The notes: generated by a model from the sequence alone, not told the origin. A stretch of 57,696 bases of DNA from Catajapyx aquilonaris (GCA_000934665.2 JYFJ02002388.1:1-57696), one strand, 5' to 3'. Positions 5,398 to 56,969 are shown, counted from the first letter of the stretch. A program made the numbers and translations.

Positions 5398-7223
5398 TTA
5401 CGTCCAGGGAAGCTTGTTAAGATATCTGTTCATCATCTCGTAGGACCATTTTGGCTGATCATGCACCACAATGTGGCCAGAATTTCTCACCACTACATAG
5501 GTAAGATTGTCAGCAAATGTGACATGACCTGCGTTGGCTCCATCAACCCTCCATACTGATGGGACAGCATCCCTGAATTTTTGGACACCTGGCCAGTTCA
5601 ACTGTTTCAGAAAGTACGGAAGATGAGTGTGGACAAATGTTATGTCCATGTTTCCGTGATAGATAAGTATTGGTAAACTGCTGTTGAGGATTTCTTCCAT
5701 TAGGTTCTGGATTCCGCTGACCAGGTCACGAGACATGTACTCTCCAACCGCCTGTGCTGCACCATAGAAAGTCTTGAATGTTTCGTTGCCTGCATGTAGT
5801 GAGCGCCGAGCATGTTTCAGCTGGACAAACTCCTCGTAATAAAAGTAATCACCAGGGGCTTTTTCCAGGGGAAGGAAGTCTGCTGTTTTATCATATCCAG
5901 CCACTTCCATAAAACGGTCACTCATTTGCCGTGCAATCTAAAAGCATCAGGATGTTAATTCCAATTATTCTCTTTGACAGACCAATATATCTCACCATTG
6001 CTGCTGCTGAAAGGTTTCCTTTCTTGTACTCTTCCAGAACCATAGCATACTGTTGCCTTCCCCAGTCTCGAGTGTTCTTGTCGATGAAGTTGACCTGGTA
6101 ATAGAAGTCACCTTTGTCTACCATTGCAATTGGGTCGACGAAACCACTGGCGATGACTATCCCTTTAAAGTTGATGTTTGCTCCAGCTTTGTTTTCATGA
6201 AGGATGCGCTGAGAAAGTGCAGCCGAACATTTGCCTGTCAACAAATATAAATCAATGTTCAGGCGGACTTGATTATAATCTAATGCATACCTCCAAATGA
6301 AATTCCCGCAACATAGAAATCGTTGTCTTTATACATGGGAAAGAGGGTGAAAAACTGGGTCAAGGCATGGAACAAATCTGTGGTTGATTGGGTCACGTTG
6401 GTAGCATATCCCCTCTCATCTCGGGTGAAGCTGAAACCACTTCCCACTGGTTGGTCGATGTAAATCATGTTGAACATTTTGGTCCAAGATGTTTTTCTTT
6501 TTTCCAACTTCAGGTTCTTGTTCACCTTGAAAGGACCATGCTGGACAAACGCACCGAAGAACCCATTTTCACCAGGTCCACCTTCCAACCAAATCATAAC
6601 TGGTGCTTTCTCATGATTTTTCTACAACATGAAACAAGACAAGCATGAGTTATAATACTAATAATACAGTAATATTTACCTCGCTTTCAATATCAGTGGA
6701 ATTATGTGATTCACCCACTTCAATCATTGTCTTTTTTTGCAGATTATTACATGATTATGAAGGACTATATAATTACTTCAGCAGGGAAGAACCAGAAGAA
6801 GAGATTGGACTGGTACTCCTCGTTGATGGTCAGGTATCCGGAGAAGCTCTTCACTTTTTCCGAGTGCATCCTGCGTACTCTGGCCAACTCTCTTCCTTCT
6901 TGGACACGACCAGATTCAATGTACGGAGTGAGGAAAAGATGTTCCAATTCTTCCAGGTCATTCTCAGAGTCCGCTTGCACCTGTCCACCTACGGTGCTCC
7001 CCAGTTGTCCTTGGAGAGGTCCTGCCGCAGCATGGCTACCTGCACTGTTACTCGATGTCACAACAGTGACGGCACATAACAAACCGACTGTTACCAGCAA
7101 GCCCATTCCTAATGCTATACCAGGTCTAGTCGAAATGACAGTGCGACGCTGTGAGGAGGTCCCTAATATAGGGGCTGTCTCCATCTGCTCCAGGATGAAG
7201 TCATCACTGCGTTTCATTGGCAT
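5398..7223 (-). CDS. Serine carboxypeptidase S10 (CPVL-like) copy 1, with a possible type II membrane anchor
   Basis: Exons with [44 protein letters not shown], nucleophile GISFGG, Asp in GNMDI and His in RNSGHIVVHDQP. GT-AG junctions are in frame. Confidence 0.92.
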
Positions 7224-7828
7224 TGTAGGTGTCGATATGTCAAGGAATCAAAGGAGAGTTGTGAGTGCGATATCATTACTGATAGATAGCCGACTGGGAC
7301 TTTGACTTGTGTTGTTAATTCCAGCTGCCAAACAGATTAGTTGTACAGTACTTAATCTTTGAGAATATGTCAAGAGATTACTGGAAGTTGTGGGTTTTGT
7401 GTGCAGGGTTCAAATGCGGGTATGGAAATTTCACAGATAATAAACCGACAACTGCATGGGTAAGGGATGTAAGTGCTGCAGAAAGGGATAATATTTTATG
7501 CACTATGAGATGTCTCTAATCTGGGATCAGCTGTTTATCTTCTCAGGCATGTTGCATAAGTTGTCGCGATAGGTTCATAATCGCAATTTTATAAGTGGAT
7601 GCTTGTTACCAGTTACAGTACTGTCACCCAGTGAGGCCTATACATGTGGTTAGCAACTCCCCAAAAAAGTGTACACCAGATCCTGGAACCAAGCCGGTTT
7701 GCACCACCAGGAAATAAATATCCGTAGTCATCGATTTAGGAGTAAACAATTTCCAAATACAAGTGTCAATGAATAAATGTCAAGTGTTCAGAAGGGCTGT
7801 TACATAACTGCTACGTACGATGCACTTG

Positions 7829-7830
<2 letters not shown>

Positions 7831-7874
<44 letters not shown>
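7831..7874. repeat. (TC)n microsatellite
   Basis: About 22 TC units. Confidence 0.97.
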
Positions 7875-7876
<2 letters not shown>

Positions 7877-7988: not shown

Positions 7989-9694
7989 TTATTTGCAGCT
8001 TTGTTCCGTTTCGTTTACATTCATGGCAACCTGCAGACTATACACGAATACTTTCAAAATCTCAAAGGACCACTCCGGCTGGTCATACACCACACAGTGT
8101 CCCGAATTTCTTACAATCGCGTACACCAGAGTATCAGTGAAGACGACACGACCTGCGAGTTCTCCATTCACTCTCCACACAGCCGGCATTGTTTCCTTCA
8201 ATATCTTCGCTCCTGACCAGTTTAAAGTTCTCAGATAGGGAAGCAGGTGTTCATTAGCCAATGTAATGTCCATATTCCCATGGAAAAGTAGGACTGGAAC
8301 TTCGGTGTTGAGGATTTCTTCCATGAGTTCCTTTATTCCGTTGATCAAGTCCGAAACCATGTAGGTAGTGACCATCGTACCCCCAGGACCATAGTATGGA
8401 TTGAAAGTCTCGTTACCAACGTGTAGTGAACTTCGCGTAGAGTATTTCTGTACAAACTCCTGGTAATAAAAGTAGTCGTGTGGTGCTGTCTCCAGTGGTA
8501 GGGAATCTGCTGTTTTATGGTATCCAGCCACTTCCGCAATGCGAGAATTCATATCTAGTGCCATCTGGAAGAGTCACGTTGTCATTGTAATTTTTTGAGC
8601 AGTAATTGGGCTTACCATTGCAGCTCCTGCGGTGTTTCCTTTCTTGTACTCTTCACGAACCATAGCATACTGTTCTTTTCCCCAGTCTAGGGTGTCTTTG
8701 TCTATTAGGCCTACCTGATATAAATAGTCACTCTTATCCACCATAGCAATTGGGTCGATGAATCCACTGGCAATGATCATTCCTTTTAGATTGATGTCTG
8801 TTCCCAATTCCCTTTCTCTGATGATGCGCTGAGCAAGGCCAGCAGCAAATTTACCTGTAAAAAAAAAGGGCGCTGGCACAATCTCACCCAACCTGGCACA
8901 ATCTCACCCCAATTGACTGCACCTTCGAATTTCTAATAAAGCAATTTGGCAAATTAAAACGCCAATCAGTACAAAATGGCATTCACAAAAATAAAACTCA
9001 CCTCCGTACGATATACCTGCCACATAAAAATCGTTTCCTCTGTACTCGGGGAAGAGGACTAAAAATTGGGTCAAAGCAAGGTACAAATCATCGGTTGATT
9101 CTGTCAGATTTGTGGCGTAACCCTTAGTTGATTTGGTGAAGCTGTAACCGCTTCCAACTGGTTGGTCGATGTAAAGCATGTTGAACAGTTTGGTCCATGA
9201 CGTTTTCCTCGATTCTAATTGCATCTTCGCATTTACTTTGAAAGGCCCGTGCAGCACAAACACCGCGAACAATCCGGATTCACCAGGTCCACCTTCCAGC
9301 CAGATCATAAGCGGTGCTTCTTCGTGTCTTATCTATAAATGGAAATTACTGGAAACAGTTAAACTGCAATTCATTATAGCTTAACTCCTAGATCTCAGTT
9401 TAAAACTCTTGATTTAATATATAAGGAAATTATTACTTCGGCTCGGAAGAACCAGAAGAAGAGATTAGATTGGTATTCCTCGTTGACGGTCAAGTATCCT
9501 GAGAAGCTCTTCAGTTTGGAAGAATGCAACTTTCTCACCCTGGACTTCTGTCGTCCTTCTAGGGCACGGCCAGAGAGGATGAATGGGGTGAGGAAGAGTG
9601 GTCTCAAGTCTTGGAACACTTTCGATGGATTACAATCCGAGACAGCATTATTGGTGGGTCTACAACACGAGGAGATCGTCGATAGAAAACCCAT
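7989..9694 (-). CDS. Serine carboxypeptidase S10 copy 2 (start uncertain)
   Basis: WLEGGPGE, GISYGG, GNMDI, RNSGHCVVYDQP; same exon structure as copy 1. The nearest in-frame ATG is at 9694 and lacks a clear signal peptide. Confidence 0.87.
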
Positions 9695-10348: not shown

Positions 10349-12160
10349 TTAGTAATACTGCGTTAGAGTTCCATCAAGGAACTCTCCACGCAGAAACCTT
10401 CTCACCGTATGAAAGGACCATTCCGGCTGATCGTGCACCACAATATGACCAGCATTTCTTAGAAGTACATGTACTACATTGTCGGCAACTGTGACATGAC
10501 CTGCATTATCTCCATTTACCACACACACGGATGGCACTGTTCCCCTGAATATTTTTGCGCCCGGCCAGTTCAATTTTTTGAGATAGGACGGTAGGTGCTC
10601 GGGAGCTATAGAAATGTCCATATTTCCATTCAAAAACAAGATTGGAAGAGAAGGGGCGTTCAGGATATCTTCCATTATCTCTTGGATGTCGTTGATCATG
10701 TCAAAAATCATATGCTGGATGACCACTTGCCCTCCACCGTAATAAGTGTTGAATGTCTGTTTGCCAACGTGTAGTGAGCGTCGAGCTGGGATTTTCTGAA
10801 CAAACTCCTCGTAATAAAAGTAGTCGTCAGGTGCTTTAGCCAGTAGAAGGGAATCTGCCGTTTCTTTATATCCAGCTACGTCAAGAAAACGAGAATTCAT
10901 TCCCAGAGCAATCTGGAAGTATCAAGAGGACATTATCAATAATATCACTGTTGCATATGGATAGATAAGTGCATCTCACCATTCCGGCTGCCATGAGGTT
11001 TCCATTGTTGTACTCCTCCAGAAGAATTTCATATTGTTCCTTCCCCCAGCTTAGAGTGATGTTGCCTATTAAGCCAACTTGGTAGTAGTAATCACTGTTG
11101 TCCACCATTGCAACTGGGTCGATGAAGCCACTGGCGATAATTACCCCTTTCAGGTTTATGTTTGCTCCCGATTCGTTTTCTCTGATGATGTGCTGGGTCA
11201 GTGCAGCCGCAAATTTGCCTACAAATAAGCACAGTATTTAGCAAATAAGGCCTGGTTGCTGTTGATTGTGACATTCAGTTACTGTTTGCTGTTATCTTAT
11301 TTTACTATCAGCTCATATTAAATGTTTTCTCATTGTACTTCATCCTGGTGATAATAACCCACATCAGGGATAAAAACAGATGCTTCGCTGCTTATGAATA
11401 GTATAATTATGCAACATATTGCTTACCTCCATACGAAATTCCTGCCACATAGAAATCGTTTGCTTGAAATATGGGGAAGAGGGTAAAAAACTGCATCAAT
11501 GCGTCATAAAGATCTCTAGTTGATTGTGTCAGGTTCCTGGCATAACCCCTGTCGTCTCTGGTGAAACTGTAACCGCTTCCCACTGGTTGGTCGATATACA
11601 GCATGTTGAACATTTTGGTCCACGAGTGTCTCCTGGACTCCAGTTTGAGCCTCTTGTTTAACTTGAATGGACCGTTCTGTACAAACACCCCGTAGAACCC
11701 AGGTTCGCCAGGTCCACCTTCCAACCAAATCATAAGCGGCGCATTTTCATGTCCTTTCTGAAATAGCAAGGAGACATTGCTGCTAGAGTGGACCAATGTC
11801 AGGGCAACATGCGTTATCTTCAAAACTGATGTGAATATTTGGTAGCGTAATAGTTACTTCTGCTAGGAAGAACCAGAAGAAAAGATTGGACTGGTACTCC
11901 TCGTTGACGGTCAGATATCCGGAGAAGCTCTTCACGTTTTCCGAGGGGAACCTTCGCACCCTGGCCTTCTGTCGTCCTTCTTCGACCCGGCCAGATTGGA
12001 TATACTGGGTGAGAAAGAGGGGTCGCAGGGAATTGTCGTCGTTGGCCTGTTGCACTGGTTCACCACCGAGTTCTTGGGCAACATGTTTGTGGGATCTGCC
12101 ATGGGTCGTCGCCATAAAAGTAAGGGCACACAACAATAAAACAGCTAGCCACGAATTCAT
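10349..12160 (-). CDS. Serine carboxypeptidase S10 copy 3, secreted
   Basis: Signal peptide MNSWLAVLLLCALTFMATTHG; WLEGGPGE, GISYGG, GNMDI, RNAGHIVVHDQP. Confidence 0.92.
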
Positions 12161-27436: not shown

Positions 27437-29256
27437 ATGAGGGTGTTAGCAACCTTTTTGATCGTACTGTCAGCGACACTTGCGGAGGAGTGTCGCTCTA
27501 TATTAGAGTGTGACCGATACGACAATGGTCGCACTGGAGAGCCGCTTTTCGTGACACAGCTGCTGGAGAGGCAAGATGGACAAGCTGCCAGAAAAGCTTC
27601 AAGGGTGCTCGGATTAGGTGACAAAGTAGAGAGCTACTCGGGGATGTTGACAGTCAACCAGAAGCATGATTCCAACGTGTTCTTCTGGTTTTTTCCCGCG
27701 TCGGTAAGCGCTGAATACTTTTGCTGGTTCTGTTACAGCTGGTTACTTCAAATTACATAATTTGTAGGATGCTGATCGTACGACTGCTCCTGTAATAGTG
27801 TGGATAGAAGGAAGGCCTGGATCATCCGTTCTGGAATCTATATTTAATCTGAACGGTCCTTATTATGTGGACAGCAGAATGAATTTACGTGTACGTGAGC
27901 AGTCATGGAGCAAGAATTTCTCAATGCTGTATTTTGACAGCCCTGTTGGGTCAGGTAAGGAGTTATCAATGTGACAGAAAAATTGTTGCTCATTGGCTGG
28001 TCTTTGTAGGCTTTAGTTACACTGGCAGCGAAGAAGGGCTGGCCACAACACAAGATGAAGTGGCGGACAACCTTTTAGTTGCAATCAAACAGTTTCTGCA
28101 GACGTTTCCAGAATATGAGAAAAACGAGATGTACTTGGGTGGCGAATTTTACGCTGGCAAAATCGTACCTGTTCTGGGGCAAAAAATGATCAAGGCGAAC
28201 AAAGCACCGGACGTGAATATCAATCTGAGAGGTATACAGTATATTATTACTTAACAATTGATGTGCGGAGAAAGTGCGTGGGCGGTAATGACTACGTACA
28301 TTTGAACAGGAATAATAATCGGAAACGGGTTGACCGACCCTGCGTCTGTGATGGACTTGAGTGATAACTTGTATCAAAGAGGGTACTTGGGATACAACGA
28401 CCGCCTTCACTTCCGACTGGAAGGAGAGAAAATCATGATGAAGATCCACCAAGGAAAACTTTCAGACGCCTTTCAGGTAATTACTAGTAATACGTATAAC
28501 AACGTTAGAAAAAAATCGGGATGTGTTATCATAACTGATATTAATGTAAGAGCTTCCAATAATTAATAATAATTATTCGACATACAATAACGTCAAAAAT
28601 AATCGCTTGAGCAGCTTTTACATGACACGATGTGAAAATTGCAGGACATGGACTCGCTTTTTGGAGGAATTATTGAGAAGCAGACCTACTTCTCCAAAGT
28701 GACCGGATTAGAAGGCCTTCACAGCCTAACCCGCCGCCAAAATCCTGACATAGAATTACTGTACAAACATTTCAGCAAAGCACCCTGTGCACGCAGATCT
28801 ATCCACGTTGGAGACTTGCAATTTGACGGTAATTCCACATAAACAATATACATATGTACCAAAAATAATTCTACTCATTTTTGAGCAGCCATGAACGAGA
28901 CTGTGGTCAACTATCTCCGAGGCGATTATCTCAAGTCAGCCAAAATCTACCTGGAAACCTTGCTAAATCGGGGCAATGTGTCGGCCCTCTTCTACACCAG
29001 ATCGGATCAGGTTCTGGCCGTGCCGTACAGCAACACGGTGCATTTCTTGTCTCATCTGCACTGGAGCAGAACGCCTGGGTTTCTCCAAGCGACTAGAACG
29101 ATCTTGAGAAAAGGAGAAAATGTGGTCGGATACGTGACTGATCTGAAGGACTTGCGGCATGTTGTATTTACAGACGCTGGAACAACCGATGCTGACTTTT
29201 CAGAACTGACCTTGGACGCCGTGACACAGTTTATAAGGAGTAAAAGTAAACCTTAA
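27437..29256 (+). CDS. S10 carboxypeptidase homolog copy 5, predicted catalytically inactive
   Basis: Signal peptide and intact exons, but WIEGRPG, GEFYAG (Ser to Phe, TTT at 28147-28149) and FTDAGTTDAD in place of RNAGHMVP. TATAAATA ~60 bp upstream. Confidence 0.9.
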
Positions 29257-33098: not shown

Positions 33099-35564
33099 AT
33101 GGCAGCAGCATCACCAATTGCGGTAATATTGACAGCGGCGACACTACTTGCAAGCGCTGTTAGGTGCGAGGACACTACTACTAACATAGTGCCAATAGCA
33201 GCTGAGGATGTGGGCGAAAGACTGTTTTTGACGCCTTTCATTGAAACCAACGACATCGAGGGAGCCATACAGGCCTCTCAGGTCACAGGAATTCATCCGG
33301 ACATAACGAGCTACTCGGGATACCTGACTGTCAACAAAGAATATGCTTCGAATCTGTTCTTTTGGTTCTTCCCTGCCAAGGTATAAGTATATGTAAACTT
33401 TATGGTTTACCTGCATAATAATATGGCTCATTTTTCTCTCAGGTCAACCCAGAGGAAGCGCCGCTGATTTTGTGGCTCCAAGGTGGACCAGGGTTAACCA
33501 CACTCATTGGGCTCTTTCTTGAACACGGGCCTTTTTGTGTGGACAAGGATTTGAACGTCACCCTGCGAGAATATGCGTGGACTACTAATTATTCAGTCCT
33601 GTATGTGGATCAGCCTGTTGGAACTGGTAATGAATTATTTTACTGTGTTAATTATTAGGCAATAATTAGTTTTCAATTAAATACGTATTATCATATCGTA
33701 TCATATCATATCGTATTATTAAATACGTATTTTCCTCTGATATGATTACGGTAGGCCTACTTCAAAATTGCAAACATTTATTTGACAAAATGTACAGTAC
33801 AGATGCGGTATATAAAATGGAATATACGTCTCTCTCTAATAAGACCAAGAGTCTCATCATGTGATAATGGAATAAAATCTATATAAATAAATAATAACAA
33901 TCAACTATAGATGATTACGAAAAATTGATATTTTTACCAATGGATGTTAATTTAAACTGACGATAAATTAACAATATTAACATTAGGAATAATACTATTA
34001 TAATACAGGGTATCTCAACTTTTTTGTCCTAACAGTTATTGGAAATATTGCACTAAGGTGCTTATTTGTTAGCAGTGACTTGCAACTAGGGATGCTTCCG
34101 TGGCTTTATCAGTTGAGGGATGTGCCAGGAATGTTGGGGCATATTCTGGCTATACATAGCTAGAAGATACATAGGCTTTTCCGATAAGTGTTCGGACAAA
34201 AAAGTTGAGACACCCTGTATAATGAGTACTTATCATTCACTTTTGCTTTTAAAAACAGACATTAGAACTTGCGCACTGACACCATAATAATTATCATTTT
34301 GTCAGTGGCATAATATTGCTACGTTGAAAGTCAATATTGCCCGAACCATATGACATCAGTAGGTTACTAATTCAAACGGTACTTTGTTATTGTGTTAATT
34401 AGGCATTTACGGCGCAACTTTCCAGGCTTTAGTTACACCGAGAAGGAAAGTGGATACGCTCAGGATCAGACTGACATTGTCCGAGATTTGTTCAACTTCC
34501 TCCGTCAATTCTACGCCCTTTTCCCCGATTACCAGAACAATGACTTGTACATCGCAGGGCAATCGTACGGTGGTAAGTGCAATAAGTGCTACAACTTGCA
34601 GATTGATTCTTAAAAATAATTATCGAACACATCTTGGTTTCAGGCAAATACGTCCCTAGCATCACCTGGAAAATCCTGCAGGAGAATTTTGCCGAAGTTG
34701 AAGAAATGCAGTTTCATCTTAAAGGTATCTAAATCCTGAACAGTCCTTGGACACCACTAACCGACTGATCATTGTCAGGTGTGATGATTGGCAACGGTCT
34801 GACTGACCCCCACATCCAGCTTCGAGGGTACAGCGACTTCTTTTACCAGGTGGGACTGGTAGACCAACAAGGCCGAGACCACATGAAGCACATCGAAGAC
34901 CACTTCAGTCACCTCCTGGGCTCAGGCGAAGTGGTTGACGCCTTCAAGGTAAAACCAATTTGCGTACGTCTGCCCAACCAAGTTACGTCACCTGCAATTA
35001 TCTCAGGTTATCGACGCAATGGTGATTGGCGATCTCCACCAATACGATTCGTACATCAACAACGTGACCGGTTTGCACGGATCCTTCTTCAACCTGGTGT
35101 GGCCCGAAGACCCGGTGGACTGGACTTACTACCAGGCTTTGGTTAGAACCGGTCCTATCAGACGCGCATTGCACGTAGGCAACCAAAGCCACAGCCATGG
35201 AAACAAGGAAGTGTTCCGGACCATGAGAGAAGACATCTTGAATTCGACCAAGCCTGTTCTGGAGAACATCCTGTCCACTGGAAAGGTCAGGGTTTTGCTG
35301 TACCATGGTCTGCTTGACATGATCATACCGTACGTGCCAACCTCCGATTTTTACAACTCGTTGGTCTGGGAAGGAAGCAGAGAGTACACTTCTGCATCCA
35401 GGAAGGTTTGGAAGGTTGGAGGAAAGGTGGCCGGATACGTCAAGGAGACGTCCGATCTGGTGACTGTGGCCATTCGCAACGCAGGACACGCTGCTCCGTA
35501 CGACCAGCCGCACCTTACGTACGACATGATCAATCGGTTCATTAGCAACCGGTCATTTGATTAG
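33099..35564 (+). CDS. Serine carboxypeptidase S10 copy 7
   Basis: Signal MAAASPIAVILTAATLLASAVRC; WLQGGPG, GQSYGG, HGLLD, RNAGHAAPYDQP. TATAAAA at 33056. Confidence 0.92.
34004..34219. mobile_element. Tc1/mariner-type MITE in a copy 7 intron
   Basis: TA-CAGGGTATCTCAACTTTTTTGTCC...GGACAAAAAAGTTGAGACACCCTG-TA. Confidence 0.88.
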
Positions 35565-37082: not shown

Positions 37083-39170
37083 ATGAAGCACAGTGTGGTT
37101 CAACTTTTGGTGATTGTGTTAGTAGCAGACATGTGCAACTCCAGAGAAGGTCCCAGAATAATATCCAGCAAAGTGGGTGACCCTCTGTATTTGACCCCTC
37201 TGATTGACAAGAAGGATTTGGACAAGGCTCGTAACCTGTCGGCGGTCACAGGTTTTATCGACGATGGTGTCCCCAGCTACTCTGGTTACTTGACTGTCAA
37301 CAAGACGTACAGGTCGAACCTCTTCTTTTGGTACTTTCCAGCTCAGGTAAGCGCACTTGATTTATAATTAGGATAGGTCATGCAAATGTGTGTTTTATTT
37401 TGCATGTCCAGAAGGCTGAAAAGGCGCCATTAATATTGTGGCTCTCAGGAGGTCCTGGGGCCACCAGCATGTTTGCGGTTTTCGTTCAGAATGGACCATA
37501 TTACATCAACGAAAATGGAAGGTTACGTTTCAGGCAGCATACTTGGACAGCCAATTATTCAATGTTGTACGTCGATCAGCCGGTGGGAACAGGTGAATTT
37601 TTTAAAGATTAAAGAAGTTACAAAGCAGAATGTTCAACAAGTCATAGAGATGTGCTAAAACATAATTTTTAAAGATTCTAATTATTAAACAATAAGAATA
37701 AAATGCCTTCTCTGTCAGTCTATTTTGTTTGAAAATTGACCTTATCTTGGACATTTGTGTCAAGAGCATTCATTTGAGACCAAACTGTGACTTTGATCGG
37801 TCAGAACTTTCATAATGTATATTAAAATTACAGGACACAATTTGTTCAGAATGGATTATATTTCAGGGTTTAGTTTCACAAACCATGAAAAAGGGTATGC
37901 ACGGAATCAAACAGATGTTACAAGGGATTTGTACAACGCACTTGTCCAGTTTCTCACTTTATTTCCTGAAGAGCAAAGCAGTGATATTTACATAGCTGGA
38001 GATTCATATGCAGGTAATCTGTTTGGCAATCTTTGTTATTCTGCAGATTTCAAACATGTGATTGATTTTCTGCAGGGAAGTACGTACCCAACATTGCCCA
38101 CAAAATATTTACGGAAGCAAAGCGATCACCGGTAAAAATAAAATTGAAAGGTGATATCTGCCACGTTTTTCGATTGGTTATTTTTAGAAGTATTAATTTT
38201 GAATTATTTTCAGCCTTAATGATAGGAAACGGTCTGACAGACCCTGTATCTAATTTACGCTACGGCGACTTCTTGTACTACTTGGGTCTTCTGGATGAGA
38301 AGACAAGAGACCACTTCAAAGAGCGCGAAAAGGTGGCCGAGAATCTTATCAACAAACAAGAATTCACAAAAGCTCTGAAGGTCAGTAGTTCCACTCCTTG
38401 TTTTTGTTGTGGCCTAAAGTCCACGAAATTCAAGGCTGAATATTATTTTTGTTCATATAAATAGCCAATATGCTAACTAATCGGCTTGTTTTGAAAAAAA
38501 AACATCTGACAATAATACAAAATAAATAAATATTTATATTTTTATTAATAACAAAGACGAAATGAAATTTCATAAATTATGCAAACGAATGATTGTTGTA
38601 ATTAATCAGGTGATCGACGAGCTTGTTCCTGGTGACCTGTCTCCTTATTCGACCGCCTTTGAAAACGTGACCGGTCTGACCCGATCCATCATCAACTTCA
38701 TGCGCGATTCGACCCCCGAGTACTGGAAGTACTTTGTGAGTTACGTCAATTCCGCTCACAGTCGGAAAGCCCTGCACGTTGGGTCCACCAGACTTCTATC
38801 CTGGAATAGAAAAGTGTTTGAGGAGATGGAAGGCGACATAATGCATTCGGCCAAACCATTGGTGGAGGAGATTCTTCAGAGAGGAACTAGAGTCCTCTAC
38901 TTCCATGGACTAATGGACATCCTTATCCCTTATGCCGGAGCTCAGACATTTTACAGGTCACTCAAGTGGGACGGGGCTCAGGAGTATCTGAAGGATCAGA
39001 GGCAGATATGGAAGGTCGGAGGTCGAGTCGCTGGGTTTGTCAGGGAGAGCAGGAATTTCGTGGAGGTTGCGGTCAGGAATGCAGGACACTTGGTCCTGTG
39101 CGATCAGCCATTACGAGCATTGGATTTGGTCAACAAGTTTATCAGTGGAGTTCATATTGGAGAATTGTGA
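37083..39170 (+). CDS. Serine carboxypeptidase S10 copy 8 (GDS motif)
   Basis: Signal MKHSVVQLLVIVLVADMCNS; WLSGGPG, FVQNGP, GDSYAG, HGLMD, RNAGHLVLCDQP. Confidence 0.92.
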
Positions 39171-40069: not shown

Positions 40070-42020
40070 ATGCTGCGCCTAATCTACTTAGTGATTGTTC
40101 TGGTTGGTCAGATCTCATCTCAACACCATGCTAATGATGTTAAGGATGACCCTGACCCAGGACAAGCTCTCTTCTTAACTCCTTATATCGAAGAGAATCG
40201 CATAGAAGAGGCTCTAGAAAGAGCTCACGTACACGGAATAAGCGATGACGTCGTCAGCTACTCCGGATTCATTACTGTCAACAAAAATTACAACTCAAAC
40301 TTATTTTTCTGGTTTTTCCCAGCAATGGTAGGCTACCGTACAAATATTAAACATTTTATTACGTGATTTCTGATTTTAAAGTTGATGTGTTTTTCGACAG
40401 GAAGTAGAAATAGAAAAGGCTCCTGTAATAGCTTATCTGAATAGTGGACCTGGTTTGTCCTCAGTGAATACACTTTTTACCGAAAACGGACCATTCATGA
40501 TCGACGAGCATCAGCAAATGAGTCGACGGGAAGACACCTGGACAAAGTATCACTCGGTCATTTACATTGACTCTCCAGTAGGAGTTGGTAAGTATAGCAT
40601 GTCTTCGCATGTGAACTACTGGACACTGAACATATGATTTTTGCAGGATTCAGTTTCACGGACAGTAATCAGGGATTTCCAAGAAACGAGAGCCAAGTAT
40701 CCAAAGATCTGCATATCTTCTTGGTGCAATTTTTCACAATGTTTTCAAATTTACAAAGCAACGATTTTTATATTGCAGGAGAGTCTTATGGAGGTATGTA
40801 AATTATGCATCATATTTGGCATTACCTGACCTTATAATATTGTGCAATATGTGTTTCAGGGAAATATGCTCCTAGCCTAGCATGGAAAATACATTTTGAA
40901 AATCAGAAGTCTAGCACACGCATCAATTTAAAGGGTATGCTTATTCCTCTCGTTTCAAGGCGAATCGCACAATAGAGCACAACTGATGCAAGATTGAAAC
41001 TTGTTTTTCAGGCGTTACGATAGGAAATGGATTCACCCATCCGCAATACCACATAGACCGAACAGAATTGCTCTTCCAGCTAGGTCTTGTCGACATACGA
41101 AGCAAATATTATCTTGCCCAGAATGTCAAGCAAGTGCAGGACTTAATTTTGGAAGAAAAGTGGGATGAAGCAATGAAGGTATGGTGTATGAAGGATGAAG
41201 CACTGTCGTAGACTGAAACAGGAAAGTCCGTCTCTACCGCTGAGTCATTATGTTTCGCAAAAGAATTTCGCAATGAATAAGTTTTTGTTATAATGGGCGG
41301 AAATGCAATTAAAATCATCTATTGAAACAACAAAGCAAAGGTTCAGTCGTGAACAAATTAGAAGCAGGTTTCACTTTATTTGATTCATCTACATTGATAT
41401 GTTTCTCTATCTGTCCTTTTCAGAGCTTCTTTGAATACCTAGGCAACATGGGCAACGCAACTGATTATCATTTTTGGTACAACGTATTGTACCCAGAAGC
41501 GCCTGATGTCTACTTCTACTATATCGATTATGTTTCCAGCAACTCTGTCAAGAAGAAAGTGCATGTCGGGCACGTCTCCTTCAACCATTTCTCATCAGAT
41601 GTATAATGCTCAAATATTTAGCCTCCTTTTACTGGATTTGAAGTTTTGTGTTTCTATTGGTTCCAGGTGTACGAATCTCTCTGGCAGGATTTCATGAAGT
41701 CTGCAAAACCCGAGGTGGAATTCCTCCTTCAAAACGGGTACTTCGTCCTGTTTTACAACGGATTGCTGGACCTCTGCGTACCGTACGCCTCGACTGCTCG
41801 TCTTATGAACGAGCTGGAATGGGAAGGGTCCAAGGATTTCCAGGAAGCCAAGAGACTATTTTGGCATGTGGATGGAGAGTTGGCAGGATACATTCAGGAA
41901 GGACACAATCTCGTATTCATTGGGGTGAGAAATGCAGGTCACATGGTGCCATTCGATCAGCCTAAGGTGGCCGAAAGGCTGATTCGAGAGTTTGTATCAG
42001 GACGAATAACTTCCCAGTGA
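40070..42020 (+). CDS. Serine carboxypeptidase S10 copy 9
   Basis: Signal MLRLIYLVIVLVGQISS; YLNSGPG, GESYGG, NGLLD, RNAGHMVPFDQP. Confidence 0.92.
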
Positions 42021-43188
42021 TGGTAAATTAAATATGTCTCGTGACATAAAAATACAGACGGACGGTTATTATTATTTTGAGTAAAACCTTGACGGATACC
42101 TTCTGAGGATGAAGTCAGTTTCCTGCAGTTTGAAAGAAGAATGTGCCAGAGGGGAAAGGATTTACGTTTAAACACCTACACGTGACCGTATGCAGGGTAA
42201 AACGTCCTGGACTTACTTCAACTACAGTATTGTCCCTCTTCTGCAGCTGTACAGTATAATTCTACGCCAACCAGCAAGGTTGTGCATACTTTTGATGATG
42301 GGCAATAAAGTAATGCAGGCCATTGCCACTATTCGCTGTTGATCTGTTGTTGCCTTTTTCCTGTACCATGACGCATTATTACACAGGCGCTTGAAAAGAT
42401 AGCGCAAGTGGTGAAAATGATGCGAATACCACAATACTAGTCACCATCACAAACTGTTGAGAGGGTGATAGAATGATGTCCGAAGGCATGTTGGGAACCC
42501 TTAAAAGTAAGCAACCTGCTGATCAATATTTTATAGTTAATATGTGCTTTGTTTTTACTCGAAATTGAGGACTATTCCACTTGAAAACTTTCATTCCCTC
42601 CTAATCAATTCATAATATAACTCAAAATATTATTATCAGGTGTAATGTTTCGATAATTACAGATTTATTATTGAAGTCAGTCATTTAAAAGTGCGAACTT
42701 GCTTAACAAGTCAATTATAATACTTCCGATATAAGCCTCTGTGATCCCTGCTGTTGGATTACTTCACTCTTATCTTATGTGAAACACATGCCGGAACACT
42801 TGTTAATTGATATTTACGGAGGCACTTCCTCTCTACAATACTACAAATCACATCATTACTACAACCCTACTGCAGCTGTTGGTAAAATGAGTATTTACTG
42901 GTATTGAGAATAACAATAGAGCAGCCGGTATGACGATTTTGTTGTTTCTCTATGGCTGTCATTTGCCTGAGGCAAAGGCTTCACAGCTATACACTCTTAG
43001 CCTGATCACGTTTATTTTGGAATTACAAATGACATTTTTATACGTCAAAATGCCTTTTACGTGCCTTGGTCACGTATATTATAACGTGACTGGTCTAAGA
43101 GTGTATTATAAGATCAAACAAGTTGGAGTTACAATAAGAGAGTGTTATATTTTCAGCTTACGTCGAATAATACTTATCCATCTATACC

Positions 43189-45423
43189 ATGGTTCTACAA
43201 CGAGTGTACGTAGTGATTCTCTTGGCCTTTCCAATCGTGTCTCCACACCACAAAAATGACGTGAAGGATGACCCACACCCAGGACAGGCTCTCTTTTTAA
43301 CTTCCTTTATCGAGGAGAACCGCATAGAAGAGGCCCGAGAACAATCCCGAGTGCACGGAATATTCGATGACATTGTCAGCTACTCTGGATTCCTGACTGT
43401 CAACAAGAAATACAACTCAAACATGTTTTTCTGGTTTTTCCCAGCAATGGCACGTATGCAAAATACAGAGTATATAATGTTTCATAATTATTCAGACAAA
43501 CTTGTAGGGTAAGCTATTGGGCATTATGAAGAGGTGTCACTGAGTCTCTGCATGCATACAGTGTTGTAATTTGCATTACCCAAAAAGTGTTTCTTGTACG
43601 ACCTCCTTTGTCGAGGATACAACCTATGATACTTCCATCCTCTCGACAACGGCATGATTTGACAATGCCAAAGAACCTTGCAAAGAACTCATCTGTTGGT
43701 GCTTAGTAAGTCACCCTATGAGTCTGTCTGAATCGTTACAAAACGCCCTGAATGTTACTAGAACATATCTCCACACTCTTTTACTCAGGAGGTAGAAGTA
43801 GAAAAGGCTGCAATTATAGTTTATCTGAATGGCGGCCCGGGATTTTCCTCAATGAACACAATATTTACTGAAAATGGACCCTTCATGGTGAACAAGCATC
43901 AGCAAATGAGTAGAAGGGAAGACACTTGGGCGAAATATCATTCAATCATTTACATTGACTCGCCAGTGGGAGCTGGTAAGTAATATTTATTGTAACCATT
44001 TTGTAAAAGGTATTGTACAGTTGATGTAGAGTTGAACTGACTTTTTGGAGACATCTTTTTCAGGATACAGTTTCACAGAACATGATGAGGGCTACCCAAA
44101 AAATCAGAGAGGAGTGGCAAACGATTTATATGCATTCCTTGTACAATTTTGTACCATATTTTCGGAATTGCAGAGAAATGAATTTTATGTGGCTGGAGAA
44201 TCATATGGAGGCAAGTAAAACAGTGCAAAAATGTGTCCCTTATACCAGTATTGTTGTACTCATTGGTTGCACTATTTACAAGGTCTGCTGCTCATGCTTT
44301 TCAGGAAAATATGCTCCTAGCTTAGCCAAGAAGATACATGATGAGAATCAGAAGTCGGATTTCAATACTATAAATTTGAAGGGTATAGTGCTTATGACAC
44401 GTATTTCAGTTTTTTTATCAAGCGGTATGGTCACTGTTTAAAGTTTAAAATACTTATTTCATATCAGGATTAGATGACTTGTGAACATAAAGCTTTCTTT
44501 TTTCCTTTTCATGGTAGGCTACTATCAAAATAATTGGTGGCAAAATAGGATGATAATTTATATTTCAGGAATTACCATTGGGAATGGTTTCACACATCCA
44601 CTGTACCACGTAGACCGCGTAGATATATTTTACCAGTTGGGACTTATTGGAATAAATAACAAAAGCAACCACGAAGAAAATGTCAAACAATTGCAAGGCT
44701 TGATTTTGGAAGATAGTTGGGATGACGCCATGACGGTAAGGCGGTTTATAACAGCACTTTGCAACATTAAAAGTTGCTACTTCAAATTCCGAAAACAATC
44801 TATCGTGACTGTTATTTATGCCTTTTCAGAGTTTCTTTGGCTGCACAGAAGACTTGTGCAGAGAGAGTGGTTATAGCTATTTGTATAACCTTCTGGATTC
44901 AGAGCCACCTCAAGAACATTATTACCATATAGATTTTTTGTCAAGTAACGCCGTGAAAAAAATGTTGCATGCTGGACATACCTCCTTTTTCTACCACTCA
45001 GGAAAGGTAATTCAACGAGTATCACTTATCTTCAGTTTCGTAAATAAATTGTACTTCTATTGGTTCCAGGTATACGAGTTTCTCTGGCAGGATTTCTTGA
45101 AATCTGCGAAACCCGAAGTAGAATTCCTACTTCAGAACGGGTACCGTGTTCTGTTCTACAATGGATTGCTGGACCTCTGCGTACCGTATGCTTCGACGGT
45201 TCGTCTTCTCGACGAGTTGGAATGGGAAGGGTCCAAGGAGTTCCAAAAAGCCAGGAGACGATTTTGGCACGTCGATGGGGAGTTGGCAGGATATGTTCAG
45301 GAAGGACAAAACCTGATGTTTGTTGGTGTGCGAAACGCAGGTCACATGGTGCCATACGAACAGCCTAAGGTGGCCGAAAGGTTGATTCGAGAGTTTGTAT
45401 CCGGACGAATAACGTCTCATTGA
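43189..45423 (+). CDS. Serine carboxypeptidase S10 copy 10 (close paralog of copy 9; two GC-AG introns)
   Basis: YLNGGPG, GESYGG, RNAGHMVPYEQP. The last exon is highly similar to that of copy 9. GC donors at 43450 and 44211 are needed to keep frame. Confidence 0.9.
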
Positions 45424-51053: not shown

Positions 51054-53417
51054 ATGCTGCTTTATGCTGCCATTTTACTGGCAGCTTCGAATTTTGGGGT
51101 CGAATGTCGAAACCTAATTTTGTCTCCCATAATTCAAAATGGGAGAATTGACGAAGCTCGAGAAATGGCACAAGTTCGAGGCCTTCACGACAGCATCACT
51201 AGTTATTCAGGATACCTGACCGTCAACGCCGAGTTCAACTCCAACATGTTATTTTGGTTTTTTCCAGCCCAAGTATACTTTATTTACCTCATTCATACTG
51301 CATTCATAGTTGGATTTTGAGTTGTGCAGTACATCGCACTTTGTATTATAACGACTGCTGGAGCTTTTCTTATAGATAGATCCAGCATCAGCTCCTCTAA
51401 TTCTTTACCTAAATGGAGGCCCAGGTTTGTCTTCACTTATGTCTCTTTTCGTGGAAAATGGACCTTTCCTAGTGGACAAAGAGGGAAACTTACACGAACG
51501 AGACCACACCTGGACAAAGTCGAGTTCTGTCCTCTACATTGATAATCCTGTGGGTGCAGGTAACAGACCACCTTCATCACACACAGTTGACACACAAACA
51601 TGATTCAATATACAGTTTAACCCTTTCATTCCCACCGTTGCCATATGGCAACAATTAATCTGGCGGCAAAGCGTTCGCATGCAGAAGGCAAACTTTGTGG
51701 GTCAAACTTCTTGTGCCATCTAGTGGATGGTGACTCAGCACCCACAAAGTCGGATTGTTATATTTTGCTCGCGCCCTTGAACGGCAAACAACCCCCCACC
51801 CGGCGGCATAATTACAGGGTGTCCCATAAGTCTGGACGCTTAGGAATTTCTCATAGTGCAGTGTTTTAGTATTATTTTGCAACCATCGTAACAATTTTAT
51901 AGTGATTTTAAAATTTTAAATTAATTTAATTGCATTTAAAGTTAATGGCATTTAATTTTTTTCTGGAACACCCTGTAGGTGAACGTTTTTGGCATTTTTA
52001 CATTTCAAAGGACCACCACGAGTAAAAATGATAAATATTGAAGCATATTGTTTTTCATTATATCACTCCTACTACAAATTTTTTTCAAAAAAAAAAGAAA
52101 CGGCCCAAAAAATTCAGGAATGAAAGGGTTAACGCCGTCACTTCCTATCTCTATACTATGAATAAATTCTAATATTTTGCGTGTAAATTTTTAGGACTTA
52201 GTTACACCGATAAAGAGGAAGGGTATGCGAGGAGTCAACAAGATGTAGCTAGAGATTTATACAGCGCTCTCCTACAGTTCTTCCAAATGTTCCCCGAATT
52301 TCGAAGGAATGATTTTTATATTGCGGGCGAATCGTACGGAGGTAACGTAACGTAGCACTCTGTATATAAGAATTATTGAAAGCTCCTAATGACAGGTATT
52401 TCATGCAGGAAAATATGCACCATCGCTGGGAGAGAAAATTCACATGGAAAATCAAAATACGGACATGGGGTTGAATCTTAAAGGTAGGCCTGAAAGAGTG
52501 TAATATTAACCCATGAAACACAGACTGAGGTCAAAATGTGACTGTTTCAGGGCTTATCATAGGGAATGGGTATACTGATCCAGTGTCTGTATTGTGCCAA
52601 AGTGAGATGTATTTTCAACTGGGTCTGCTCAACCAGAAAATATTTGAGAAGGCCTACAGATTGGAAGAAAAACTTCGCGACGCAATTAATTCAAAAAAGT
52701 GGACTTTAGCGACTCAAGTATGTCAAAATTTTCCCATTACTCATACACCAATCAGTTTATAAAAATAGTAAGTGAGAAGCATACTCTTAGTGCAATGCAT
52801 TTTAATCCTCTGCGTATTTTACTGCAGATATTTTTTCGGCGCATGCGCGTACTTAACGCCGGTACAGGGTACCGTTACGAGTATAATTTCTTGCAAACAA
52901 AACAACCCGCTGAATTTGAATATCACACACCTTTCCTACAACAGAAGAGCATTCTCGAGAGAATTCATGCAGAGGATTCGACATACTCGTCGTTTGTTGG
53001 ACAGGTTTGTTATCATTTATAGGAAAGCATTAAATCTCACCTTTTGACGCACTAATTATTCAGGTGCGCCACCACCTCAGATATGATATTTATAAATCTG
53101 AAAAGCCTGCTGTGGAGCTTCTCCTGCGTAAAGGATATCGTATATTGTACTACCACGGACTGTTGGATTTTAACGTTCCTTACGCAGGACAAACGAAATT
53201 TCTGAATTCACTGAACTGGAGCGGATCCGGGGAATTCCAAGATGCTCGAAGGAGGCTTTGGATGGTGGATGGAGACATTGCAGGCTATGTGCAAGACGGC
53301 GGTAACTTGACATTTGCTGGCATACGTAAAGCCGGACACATGGTACCTTACGATCAGCCTGAACTGGCCGAATCTCTCATTCGAAAATACGTGTCTGAGG
53401 AATCCATAGTTTCGTAA
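51054..53417 (+). CDS. Serine carboxypeptidase S10 copy 11
   Basis: Signal MLLYAAILLAASNFGVEC; YLNGGPG, GESYGG, HGLLD, RKAGHMVPYDQP. Confidence 0.92.
51617..52132. mobile_element. piggyBac-type MITE in a copy 11 intron
   Basis: TTAA-CCCTTTCATTCC ... GGAATGAAAGGG-TTAA. Absent from the equivalent short intron of copy 12. Confidence 0.85.
51813..51977. mobile_element. Tc1/mariner-type MITE nested in the piggyBac-type MITE
   Basis: TA-CAGGGTGTCCCA ... TGGAACACCCTG-TA. Confidence 0.75.
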
Positions 53418-54057
53418 TGAATCTAAAATCCGGAAAGCCCCCACATTTATAGAATATTTTCAAATATCATTCTTAACTATAAAATAATATAAACAACCTT
53501 TAAGCTTTTGTACCTTTTATTTCAACTCCCGCCCATATTCATGGAGATATTTGCACAATTTCACATCGATGTTACCACCATGTGGTCTGTGCACATCATA
53601 AGTCACATTCGTCTTTTTTGCTCACTTTTACCGATGTACTGTTCCTGACACAATGTAGCTACAGTATAAATAATATTAATGATGTAACAAATGTATTTTC
53701 AGCAAACATAATTGTCCATATGTAGTATATAGACAATATAATTACGCGTGACATTAATTAGTCCACAGTGTCGTAACTTCCTTCCTTTTAAGCCATTGAG
53801 TAATAGATAAATAAAAAACCGGACGCCAATTACAAACTCGTTTGTATCTGTGTATCACGCCTGACTTTGATGATAAACTGTAAAATTGTCCTTGAAAATT
53901 AAAAATCATGCCCTACTAAAATCATAGTCCATTGTGATCAGCTCAAGTGCACTTCAGAGCAAGACCTGCACTTCACAATATTACTCAGGTAAATAAATCC
54001 AAAATGTTAATTTGTCCTCGAGAAATTTACTAACTGGTACATGCTTCTATTTCAAGC

Positions 54058-55899
54058 ATGCTACTTTATGCTGCCATTTTACTGGCGGCTACAAACTTTG
54101 GAATAGCACGCACAAACCTCATTTTGACACCAATCATTCAAAATGGGAGAATTGACAAAGCTCGTGAAATGGCACAAGTTCGAGGGCTTCACGACAGCAT
54201 CACTAGTTATTCAGGATACCTGACCGTCAACGCCGAATACAACTCCAACATGTTCTTTTGGTTTTTTCCAGCCCAAGTGCGACATTTTAATATTTTAACT
54301 GCTTTTCCTAGCTATATTCACATTTTAAGATGAGAAATTCACCAACCTTGTGTAGGCCTATATCATAACGACTTGAGATTTTTTTAAGGTAGATCCAGCA
54401 TCAGCCCCTGTTATCCTTTACCTAAACGGAGGTCCCGGTTTATCGTCACTTATGGCTCTTTTCGTGGAAAATGGACCTTTCCTAGTGGACAAGGAAGGAA
54501 ATTTGCACGAAAGAAAGCACACTTGGACAAAATCAAATTCTGTGCTTTACATTGACAATCCAGTGGGTGCAGGTAACATGTTTACCATAATATTACAGTG
54601 TTTGGCTGCCTGCATTATTGGAGAAAATTCAGGTTCTGATATGGTTTAATATTTTGCGTATTTCAAGGGCTTAGTTACACCGATGAAGAAGACGGGTATG
54701 CCCGTAGTCAACAAGATGTAGCTCGAGATTTATACACTGCTCTCCTGCAATTCTTTCAAATGTTCCCAGAATTTCTCAAGAATGATTTTTACATTGCGGG
54801 CGAATCGTACGGAGGTAAAGCAGCATAGCAGCAGGTAGGGTCAATATGAAAAAAAATTTATAATATTTGGCATATTTTTGTGTAGGAAAATATGTCCCAT
54901 CTCTGGGGGAGAAAATTCACATGGAAAATAAAAATACTGATATGTGGATAAATCTTAAAGGTAAGCTTAAAATAGTGTAATTAACTCATCAAACACAGAC
55001 GGAGGTCAACATGTTACTATTTCAGGACTTATCATAGGCAACGGATGGACTGATCCAGTGTCTCTATTGTGTCAAAGTGAGATGTATTTTCAACTGGGTC
55101 TACTCAACCAGAAAACATTTAAGGAGGCCTACAGAACGGAAGAAGAACTTCGCGATGCAATTAATTCAAACAAGTTCACTGAGGCGACTCATGTAAGCTC
55201 AAAAGTTATTACCTTGGTTATTACAGTGAACTGTTAATAGAAAGGGGAAGCGAGAACAATAAGATTGATGACATGCATTTTAATCCAATTGTTGCAGATA
55301 TTTTGGCGGCTGGTGGAAGTAATGGATGGCAGTACAGGGTACCGTTACGAGTATAATTTCTTGGAAACAAAACAACCGGCTGACTTTGAGTATCACACAC
55401 CTTTATTACGACAGAGGAGCATTCTCAAAAAACTTCATGCAGAGGATTCGACATACACGTCATTTTCTTTAAAGGTTAGTCGTTCTTTGTAGCATAATTA
55501 ATGCATTTTTACGTATGTAACTCGCTCAATTTTCAGGTGCACCGCGAACTCAGCTCTGAATTCTTTGATTCCGCCAAACCTGCTGTGGAGCTTCTACTGC
55601 GTAAAGGATATCGTGTTTTGTACTATCACGGGCTATTGGATCTTGCCGTTCCGTACGCTGGACAAACTAAATATCTGAATTCACTGAATTGGAGCGGATC
55701 CGACCTGTTTGTAGATGCATCTAGGCGGATTTGGACCGTGGATGGAGACATTGCAGGCTACGTCCAAGACGGCGGAAATCTGTCATTTGTTGGCGTACGT
55801 AATGCAGGGCATATGGTACCTTACGAGCAGCCCAAATTGGCCGAACTTCTCATTCGAAATTTTGTGTCGGAAGAAGAAACTGCTCAGAATTTAATCTAA
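54058..55899 (+). CDS. Serine carboxypeptidase S10 copy 12 (close paralog of copy 11)
   Basis: MLLYAAILLAATNFGIA; YLNGGPG, GESYGG, HGLLD, RNAGHMVPYEQP. Confidence 0.92.
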
Positions 55900-56243
55900 A
55901 ATATTGAAACCCCACCACTTATCAACTGTTTTCAATATTACTTGGAATATATTAAACATATGAACGTTGTTGCGGCCTTTCCTTTCAACTGCTGTCCATA
56001 TATTCAGCCGGGAACATGACATTGGCATACAAATGTGCCAGTGTCATAAATTGTTGCCTGCCAATATACCAAACATTCGACCTCATAGTTTGACCATGAC
56101 TACTACGACGCCCTTATGTGACCCTCAATTTCAATAACCTCGTGCAGTTGTAATGAAGCAACCTATAAACTGTGTTGGTTCCAATGCACTTGATCCACAT
56201 AAATATATAAAAGCTGCAACACAAGTGGAACTATACGGTAGTC

Positions 56244-56969
56244 ATGTTGGGGTTCATCCTCTGGATACCATGCGTTTTCGCTGCTGACAATCCATTGCTG
56301 CTAACACCTTACATCAACTCTATCAACACTAGTGAAGCTCAGAAGCTGGCAAAGGTTGAAGGATTACCTGTGGATATCCTCAGCTATTCCGGATTCCTTA
56401 ACGTCAATCCGGATTACAACTCTAACCTGTTCTTCTGGTTTTTTCCAGCAGAGGTGAGGTGTTAATCATGTAGACTGGTCAATTTTGCCATTATTCTCTC
56501 TTTTCCATATCTTTAAGTATAAACCCGAGGATGCGCCGGTGGTTCTCTGGCTATTGGGAGGTCCTGGGTCGTCCACTCACAGTTTATTCAATGAGAATGG
56601 GCCGATAGAGGTGGACGAAGTTGGTAATATCCGGAGACGTACTTTCACGTGGACATCGGCCTGCAATATGCTTTACATCGACGCACCTGCTGGAGCTGGG
56701 TTCAGCTTCACGGATAATCCCCTAGGATACTCCAAGAATCAAACGGATGTTGCGGAGGATTTGTACAATGCTGTTGGCCAGTTCTTCGACTTATTTACGG
56801 AGTACAAACAGAATGAGTTCTACGTCATGGGCGAATCGTATGCTGGTGAGTTGGAATGTCAATGCGAAAGTGACAGTTGATTTATTACTGATTGAATCCT
56901 TAGGAAAATATGCAACGGCATTATCGTACAGAATCTTTCAAGATAACAACAGCACCATCAACTACAGAG
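56244..56969 (+). CDS. Serine carboxypeptidase S10 copy 13, 5' part; remaining exons not seen in window
   Basis: Signal [51 protein letters not shown], then a GC donor at 56970. TATATAAAA ~40 bp upstream. Confidence 0.88.

Follow-up and report, generated by a model that had tools for sequence, protein, structure and literature searches.

Introduction

In plants, the serine carboxypeptidases of family S10 are the standard example of a hydrolase fold put to new chemical uses; their animal counterparts are regarded as everyday carboxypeptidases of the lysosome or of digestion. Whether an animal could also have turned this fold to other substrates is the question raised by a stretch of 57,696 nucleotides from Catajapyx aquilonaris (GCA_000934665.2 JYFJ02002388.1:1-57696, referred to as the window), in which 13 S10 genes (PF00450), four on the minus strand and nine on the plus strand, lie within 52 kb. 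An earlier note on this DNA had described an array of at least 13 such genes with diversified active sites and intact reading frames, and had proposed an independent radiation into non-carboxypeptidase chemistry, for example in venom, defensive-gland or digestive secretions.

The reading favoured here, at about even confidence, is that these genes form an old tandem cluster, encode secreted S10 serine hydrolases of the CPVL type and descend from at least three ancestral lineages, and that the copies would have the separate roles proposed below. Within 52 kb, the glutamate in front of the nucleophile (Glu145 in yeast carboxypeptidase Y, CPY) was replaced four times independently, the catalytic triad was lost completely once, and two of the replaced forms are transcribed. 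The pocket for the peptide's end was rebuilt repeatedly, which hints at new substrate preferences. The cluster offers a compact natural series in which the influence of the carboxylate-binding network on substrate class and pH dependence can be followed, and it opens a search for animal S10 enzymes other than carboxypeptidases; new chemistry itself is not demonstrated by sequence.

Identification of the array

A six-frame motif scan returned 13 nucleophile motifs, at 6.3-14.5 kb in the minus-strand half and at 28.1-56.8 kb in the plus-strand half, in the same order and spelling as had been listed earlier (GISF, GISY, GISY, GESY, GEFY, GTSY, GQSY, GDSY and five times GESY for copies 1 to 13). 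The same number of co-linear exon-match sets was obtained by tblastn with an insect homologue as query, which left two gaps, 15.4-27.5 kb and 45.5-51 kb, free of S10 matches. Two exon translations per copy, except three for copy 5 and one for copy 13, were compared with PF00450, and all 26 matched with 25.6-147 bits (cut-off 21.9), the lowest score belonging to the C-terminal exon of copy 5. Position 5398 is the end of the stop codon of copy 1, and position 56969 falls inside exon 3 of copy 13.

That the array is an animal one was borne out by its closest matches. Searches with exons of copies 3 and 9 returned arthropod proteins annotated as venom serine carboxypeptidase, carboxypeptidase or CPVL-like (44-54% identity), and the neighbouring NDUFB5 gene reaches no more than 72% identity to insect proteins from many orders, a ceiling that suggests a hexapod with no close kin represented in the protein collection.

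Conserved catalytic machinery and variable carboxylate-binding site

Exon 2 of copy 4 aligned end to end with human cathepsin A (E 4e-28) and CPY (E 3e-17), without gaps in the relevant stretch. In this alignment the variable positions correspond to Asn55, Glu69, Glu149 and Ser150 of cathepsin A, and to Asn51, Glu65, Glu145 and Ser146 of CPY, whose numbering is used throughout. The triad Ser146-Asp338-His397 is kept in 11 of the 12 complete copies, copy 5 being the exception, and in copy 13 Ser alone is within view. Likewise, the oxyanion hole has Gly53 in 11/12 (Arg in copy 5) and Tyr147 in 11/12 (Phe in copy 1).

The residues at positions 51/65/145/146/397/398 are E Q I S H I in copies 1 and 3, E L I S H C in copy 2, Q E E S H L in copy 4, N E T S H L in copy 6, Q E Q S H A in copy 7, S Q D S H L in copy 8 and N E E S H M in copies 9-12, the last four also having Tyr in place of Trp49. 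Copy 5 has E L E F at the first four of these positions, none at 397 and a gap at 398, and copy 13 has L E E S at 51/65/145/146. Glu145 is therefore replaced in six triad-bearing copies (Ile three times, Thr, Gln and Asp), and Glu65 is replaced as well in copies 1-3 and 8; the full carboxylate-binding set, with Asn or the common insect Gln followed by two Glu, is found only in copies 4 and 9-12. In wheat carboxypeptidase II, the contacts with benzylsuccinate are given as N51, G52, G53, C56, E145, S146, Y147, H397 and E398 (excerpt of PMC7034887). Read against these contacts, the machinery is kept in 11/12 copies and the site for the carboxylate and P1' varies. Variation concentrates at the equivalents of CPY Trp49, Asn51, Glu65, Glu145 and Met398, the positions that in solved S10 enzymes bind the C-terminal carboxylate and the P1' residue.

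These observations uphold two points of the earlier note. The WLNGGPG, FxExGP and GHMVP motifs do vary in parallel, as seen in the spliced models and the alignment, and the varying residues are indeed those aligned with Asn51, Glu65 and Glu145, which are among the most-departing of the conserved columns described next.

Comparison with outside relatives

Conserved columns were defined as those conserved in at least 85% of 56 outside full-length relatives (n=70). The column of Glu145 holds Glu in 52 of these relatives and that of Glu65 in 53, and the 12 complete window copies depart from the two columns in 6/12 and 5/12 cases. Departures were also frequent at a loop position after GGPG (7/12), at a second loop position after it (5/12) and at a Leu-to-Met column (6/12), where the change is conservative. 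A residue other than Glu at 145 was thus present in 6/12 window copies vs 4/56 outside sequences (Fisher P = 0.0012, a value that overstates independence because on the tree the window accounts for 4 changes out of 8 total).

Such counts have to be weighed against the plainer account of an ordinary digestive or lysosomal expansion, in which all triad-bearing copies are carboxypeptidases and the motifs tune pH optimum and P1/P1' preference. We regard this account as possible but rather unlikely. It agrees well with the triad and oxyanion residues kept in 11/12 complete copies, and with what is described for other arthropods, where 12 S10 genes are given for a mirid bug genome and S10 expansions in insects are called digestive (excerpt of PMC10510153), and where CPVL is counted among the final-digestion enzymes of a spider (excerpt of PMC5013568). 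It does not sit well with copies 1-3, which are without both carboxylate-binding glutamates and have a hydrophobic Ile beside the nucleophile, at two positions where outside relatives nearly always keep Glu, and in which the change was held by purifying selection across two duplications.

A wider motif census, made by pattern on the 150 best database matches and 10 named proteins, comprised 168 domains and gave this plainer account some further weight. Glu-Ser was found in 137/168 domains, another residue before Ser in 23/168 (Val 7, Gln 6, His 4, Asp 3, and Ala, Ser and Met) and no Ser in 8/168, the last number including at least one false pattern match, P0219, which was scored 'LN' and has Glu-Ser in the alignment. 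Among other arthropods, a potato tuber moth protein combines WLEGGPG with GVSYGG, and moth and whitefly proteins have GQSYAG. This array is not alone in having the Glu in front of the nucleophile replaced; the change recurs in other arthropods. A full HMMER search with exon 2 of copy 3 against 1.84 billion representatives gave 7000 matches at E <= 0.001, none of them exceeding 57% identity; no characterisation of a Glu145-replaced animal S10 form was found in the open literature.

Many of the best relatives (P0134-P0149 and others) are predictions with 2-4 S10 domains in 850-2300 residues, e.g. a Caenorhabditis japonica protein and two moth proteins. Gene callers have most likely joined adjacent genes in them, and tandem arrays of S10 genes therefore seem frequent among other invertebrates, as would also be expected if expansions of this kind were ordinary.

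The best named matches of the window copies are arthropod CPVL-type proteins of the same Pfam family ('venom serine carboxypeptidase', 'vitellogenic carboxypeptidase-like', 'probable serine carboxypeptidase CPVL'). Like the window copies these have about 440-480 amino acids and a signal peptide, copy 4 being of their common type (WLQGGPG / ExGP / GESY / GHM); the array differs from them in its six Glu145 replacements, the Tyr49 of copies 9-12 and one triad-less copy. The fold family and the catalytic motifs are also common to CPY (1YSC/1WPX), cathepsin A (1IVY) and wheat carboxypeptidase II (1WHT/3SC2), but these solved enzymes carry the full Asn/Glu/Glu set, whereas copies 1-3, 5, 6, 7 and 8 do not. 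CPY and cathepsin A contain several disulfides, in contrast to the window proteins, which have only 1-5 cysteines each. Four disulfides are described around the V-shape helix of CPY (excerpt of PMC6609556).

Phylogeny

Trees were built by quick maximum likelihood, and branch support was taken from the Shimodaira-Hasegawa-like approximate likelihood ratio test (SH-aLRT) only. All window copies fell among arthropod CPVL-like sequences, with cathepsin A, SCPEP1 and human CPVL left out and with SH-aLRT values of 38-91 on the deep branches. Copies 1-3 form a clade with support 100 on a long stem, and copies 6-12 a clade with support 97, within which copies 9/10 and 11/12 are pairs with support 100 and copies 7/8 a pair with support 95-97. 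Copy 4 was placed elsewhere, amid sequences of other species. Copy 5 has the longest branch and joined copies 6-12 (support 91) or copies 1-3 (support 80), depending on the tree. The window copies did not group with the sampled plant sequence (P0154, a Cochlearia protein).

These groupings indicate at least three old lineages followed by local duplications. A single independent radiation is thus contradicted, since three groups (copies 1-3, copy 4 and copies 6-12) each lie apart among the sequences of other species. On the same tree, the Glu145 replacements amount to four independent changes within the window. The Val-Ser and Ile-Ser forms of other species are separate from copies 1-3, so that hydrophobic replacement arose at least three times.

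Selection

For the three pairs among copies 1-3, the ratio of nonsynonymous to synonymous divergence (dN/dS) was 0.21-0.30, at a synonymous divergence (dS) of 0.77-1.18 and a protein identity of 63-66%. Similar values were obtained for the canonical pairs, with 0.18-0.24 for copies 9/10 and 0.26-0.29 for copies 11/12, and the youngest pair has a dS of about 0.4. Pairs with copies 4-8, as well as copies 9/10 vs 11/12, had saturated or undefined dS and were not used. Copies 1-3 are under purifying selection, like the canonical pairs. The codons for Ile145 in copies 1, 2 and 3 are ATT, ATA and ATT, and those for the Ser that follows are TCA, TCG and TCG.

On this evidence, the variant copies are very unlikely to be unprocessed pseudogenes, duplicates in decay whose frames are open by chance. 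Signs of decay might be seen in copy 5, which lost Ser, His and Gly53, in the weakly hydrophobic leader of copy 2 and in the non-GT donor of copy 10. The last belongs, as a GC-AG intron, to a minor class that is well established, and decay accords poorly with the 12 complete models without a single in-frame stop, with a dN/dS of copies 1-3 that equals that of the canonical pairs, with the spliced transcripts of copies 7 and 8 described below, and with the small chance that a neutral frame would have stayed open to the dS of even the youngest pair.

The last argument was made for copy 5, a candidate pseudoenzyme located at 27437..29256 on the plus strand, with six exons (boundaries of exons 4 and 5 uncertain) and its nucleophile motif GEFYAG at 28141. 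Its Ser is replaced by Phe, its His is gone (AG-TT), the Asp region is changed and Gly53 is replaced by Arg (WIEGRPG), and it departs from the outside consensus at 16/69 conserved columns, the maximum in the array. Its frame of 464 codons is nevertheless intact, with five GT-AG introns. Given that 4.7% of single substitutions in this frame create a stop, it would last through 0.05 neutral substitutions per site with P = 0.04 and through 0.1 with P = 0.0015, and its dS is saturated against every other copy. The open frame, the saturated dS and the many departures together suggest that copy 5 was kept open by selection nearly throughout its history; a very recent death is possible. Copy 5 may be a non-catalytic paralogue retained as a binding protein or as the partner of an active copy. 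A comparable case is CsSCPL5 of tea (triad T-D-Y), an inactive S10 paralogue that its active partner CsSCPL4 nonetheless needs (excerpt of PMC9541279), and to which copy 5 would be analogous as a triad-less paralogue next to active-looking ones.

Transcript-like and genomic contigs

Contigs of two sequencing runs, X5 and X1, were mapped to the stretch 27301-47300, outside which copies 1-4 and 11-13 lie. Run X5 comprises 32 million letters of contigs and contains 41% of the words sampled from 32.9-42.1 kb. On the mapped stretch its contigs skip 11 intervals, all of them GT..AG and all of them (11/11) identical with modelled introns, namely 5/5 in copy 7, 5/5 in copy 8 and intron 1 of copy 9 (40328-40400). 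Copy 7 is covered by one spliced contig of 2083 bases from 33092 to 36215 at a depth of 28.9, and copy 8 by spliced contigs at a depth of 8.06. With X5 taken as derived from RNA, the agreement with the modelled introns means that copies 7 (GQSY) and 8 (GDSY) are transcribed and correctly spliced. The DNA run X1 is continuous across the same introns at an even depth of 17-23, a high-copy repeat excepted, which identifies the copies as distinct loci and not as an assembly artefact.

The claim that variant copies are maintained is therefore supported from two sides, by the dN/dS of copies 1-3 and by the spliced transcripts of copies 7 and 8; where tested, the variant copies are not unexpressed genes with a dN/dS near 1. 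Copies 5, 6 and 10 have no meaningful X5 contig cover in the mapped stretch, and nothing about their expression was drawn from that.

Slight X5 depth near 30.0-30.6 kb and 43.3-44.0 kb came from one contig that diverges from the window. This contig, present in both X1 and X5, matches a conserved piece of copy 10 up to 43403, followed by nine other letters and a match to copy 6 from 30357, and then continues unlike the window. It probably represents another S10 gene copy of this genome, located outside the window and apparently transcribed.

Proposed roles of the copies

Under the favoured reading of an old cluster with divided roles, copies 4 and 9-13 would be ordinary acid carboxypeptidases that act in digestion or lysosomal turnover. 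Copies 6, 7 and 8, with Thr, Gln and Asp at 145, would still be exopeptidases, with an altered pH dependence or P1' preference. Copies 1-3, with Ile145, Gln or Leu65 and Glu51, would most likely have been freed from dependence on the C-terminal carboxylate and may be esterases, amidases or acyl-transfer-type hydrolases; a shift of these three copies to non-peptidase chemistry is plausible. Nothing in evidence points to the venom or defensive-gland role suggested earlier.

Several points weigh against this reading. The functional role of every copy is a prediction. Effects of Glu65 and Glu145 replacements in CPY on peptide vs ester substrates were reportedly described by Mortensen, Remington and Breddam in 1994, and from that CPY mutagenesis work replacements of this kind would be expected to leave the hydrolysis of esters and amides intact; no paper with mutant data on CPY Glu145, Glu65 or Asn51 was found in the open literature. 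Gln in place of Asn51 is already present in most insect relatives (86/141 scored motifs), and Gln and Asp at 145 are conservative changes, so that copies 6-8 may be unremarkable carboxypeptidases. The placement of copy 5 in the trees is unstable. With dS saturated for copies 4-8, selection on these copies is argued from open frames and, for copies 7 and 8, from transcripts. Run X5, the kind of which is not on record, is taken to be RNA-derived because its contigs skip introns, and the transcript check of the gene models covers copies 7 and 8 and intron 1 of copy 9 only.

A more far-reaching alternative is that copies 1-3, and possibly copy 8, have left peptidase chemistry altogether and become small-molecule acyltransferases or lyases, in convergence with plant serine carboxypeptidase-like (SCPL) acyltransferases and the hydroxynitrile lyase of sorghum. 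This version of the earlier proposal we consider improbable. It would explain why carboxylate-recognition residues are replaced in copies whose Ser-Asp-His machinery is conserved. The GDSY of copy 8 also resembles the motif of plant clade IA acyltransferases, and the hydroxynitrile lyase 1GXS is among the solved relatives of exon 2. That the S10 fold supports acyl transfer is known from the plant SCPL acyltransferases (reviewed in PMC9541279, excerpt). Against such a change of chemistry stand the neighbours in the window, which are only NDUFB5, MMADHC, an ankyrin-like open reading frame (ORF) and a solute symporter, with no metabolic genes, and the failure of the window copies to group with plant-type sequences in the tree. 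Moreover, no animal S10 acyltransferase was found in the open literature (subscription journals and supplements being outside its scope). Plant and tea S10 paralogues resemble the window copies in having been born by duplication, some of them with altered active-site surroundings (excerpt of PMC9541279), but they belong to another kingdom and clade, and no acyl-glucose pathway genes lie near the window copies. A narrower version, in which copies 1-3 would act on esters, amides or acyl-sugar donors in convergence with plant SCPL acyltransferases and copy 5 would serve as a stabilising or regulating companion, is given little credence.

Gene models

Models were made with a purpose-written protein-to-genome aligner that uses GT-AG introns, with three database homologues and then the paralogues as references; they were lengthened to start and stop codons, and spurious tiny terminal exons were removed. 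The GC-AG intron of copy 10 and the starts of copy 10 (43189) and copy 6 (30169) were set by eye. Twelve spliced models have complete frames of 440-518 codons with no internal stops, and their introns are GT-AG save one GC donor. The intact frames described earlier thus hold for these 12 copies, copy 13 being a three-exon fragment. Two exon plans were found, with the region from GGPG to the nucleophile in a single exon of 328-331 bases in copies 1-4 and 13 and split in copies 5-12. All copies have N-terminal hydrophobic leaders, that of copy 2 being weak.

The copies of the minus-strand half have four exons each. Copy 1 (5398..7223; exons 6777-7223, 6291-6621, 5996-6234 and 5398-5937) has the motifs WLEGGPG, FVQHGP, GISFGG (at 6289) and GHIVV. 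In its exon 1, the open frame extends some 100 codons ahead of the conserved domain (6939-7223, minus strand). Translation probably begins at the Met at 7104-7106, which aligns with the initiator Mets of the next two copies, 2 and 3, and gives a normal signal peptide; an alternative start at 7223 would yield a cytoplasmic tail and a membrane anchor. Copy 2 (7989..9694; exons 9437-9694, 9002-9332, 8616-8854 and 7989-8564) has WLEGGPG, FVLHGP, GISYGG (at 9000) and GHCVV. Its N-terminus is uncertain, with a Ser/Thr-rich leader, and a search for an upstream signal-peptide exon gave nothing convincing. Copy 3 (10349..12160; exons 11858-12160, 11427-11757, 10980-11218 and 10349-10912) has a signal peptide and the motifs WLEGGPG, FVQNGP, GISYGG (at 11425) and GHIVV. 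Copy 4 (13618..15371; exons 15075-15371, 14499-14829, 14196-14437 and 13618-14139) has WLQGGPG, FKEIGP, GESYAG (at 14497) and GHLAP, a canonical insect-type site.

On the plus strand, copy 5 is followed by three further copies with six exons. Copy 6 (30169..31824), with a signal peptide from the start at 30169, has WINGGPG, FVEHGP, GTSYAG (at 30822) and GHLVA. Copy 7 (33099..35564; exons 33099-33380, 33443-33626, 34426-34572, 34644-34724, 34779-34948 and 35007-35564) has WLQGGPG, FLEHGP, GQSYGG (at 34557) and GHAAP. Within its intron 2 (799 bases), at 34112-34226, the summed X1 contig depth rises to about 6800, vs about 23 around it, with many loose ends; this high-copy repeat is probably a transposon fragment. 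Copy 8 (37083..39170; exons 37083-37346, 37412-37592, 37867-38013, 38076-38150, 38214-38380 and 38610-39170) has WLSGGPG, FVQNGP, GDSYAG (at 37998) and GHLVL.

Copies 9 to 12, also on the plus strand, have seven exons each. Copy 9 (40070..42020) has YLNSGPG, FTENGP, GESYGG (at 40778) and GHMVP, and copy 10 (43189..45423) has YLNGGPG, FTENGP, GESYGG (at 44195) and GHMVP. The intron of copy 10 at 44211-44304, right after the nucleophile exon, has a GC donor (GCAAGT), every other modelled intron being GT-AG. As the aligner needs GT donors, its model of copy 10 bypassed the nucleophile motif and was corrected by hand to GC-AG, a recognised minor intron class. Copies 11 (51054..53417, GESYGG at 52326) and 12 (54058..55899, GESYGG at 54799) share YLNGGPG, FVENGP, GESYGG and GHMVP, and their proteins are 80% identical. 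Copy 13 (56244..56973, plus strand) is a fragment near the window end (57696), composed of the first three exons (56244-56453, 56518-56845 and 56904-56973) with WLLGGPG, FNENGP and GESYAG (at 56830); four reference proteins revealed no convincing exons between 56973 and the window end.

Genomic neighbourhood

Pfam scans of the window ORFs outside the S10 copies returned no transposase and no metabolic partner gene (e.g. glucosyltransferase), and no tRNA genes were found in the window. The left flank of the array contains NDUFB5 (825-1304, plus strand), a single ORF of 160 codons with 237 bits, and MMADHC (3635-4787, plus strand), composed of two ORFs with 40 and 224 bits. The ankyrin-like ORF (20306-20629, minus strand) is the sole Pfam match in the 12-kb gap between the two halves of the array. 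Between copies 10 and 11, ORFs resembling a sodium:solute symporter (PF00474) lie on the plus strand at 47542-48803 and on to about 50.5 kb, with scores of 17-21 bits that are below the cut-off. The window has a G+C content of about 42% and is eukaryotic DNA.

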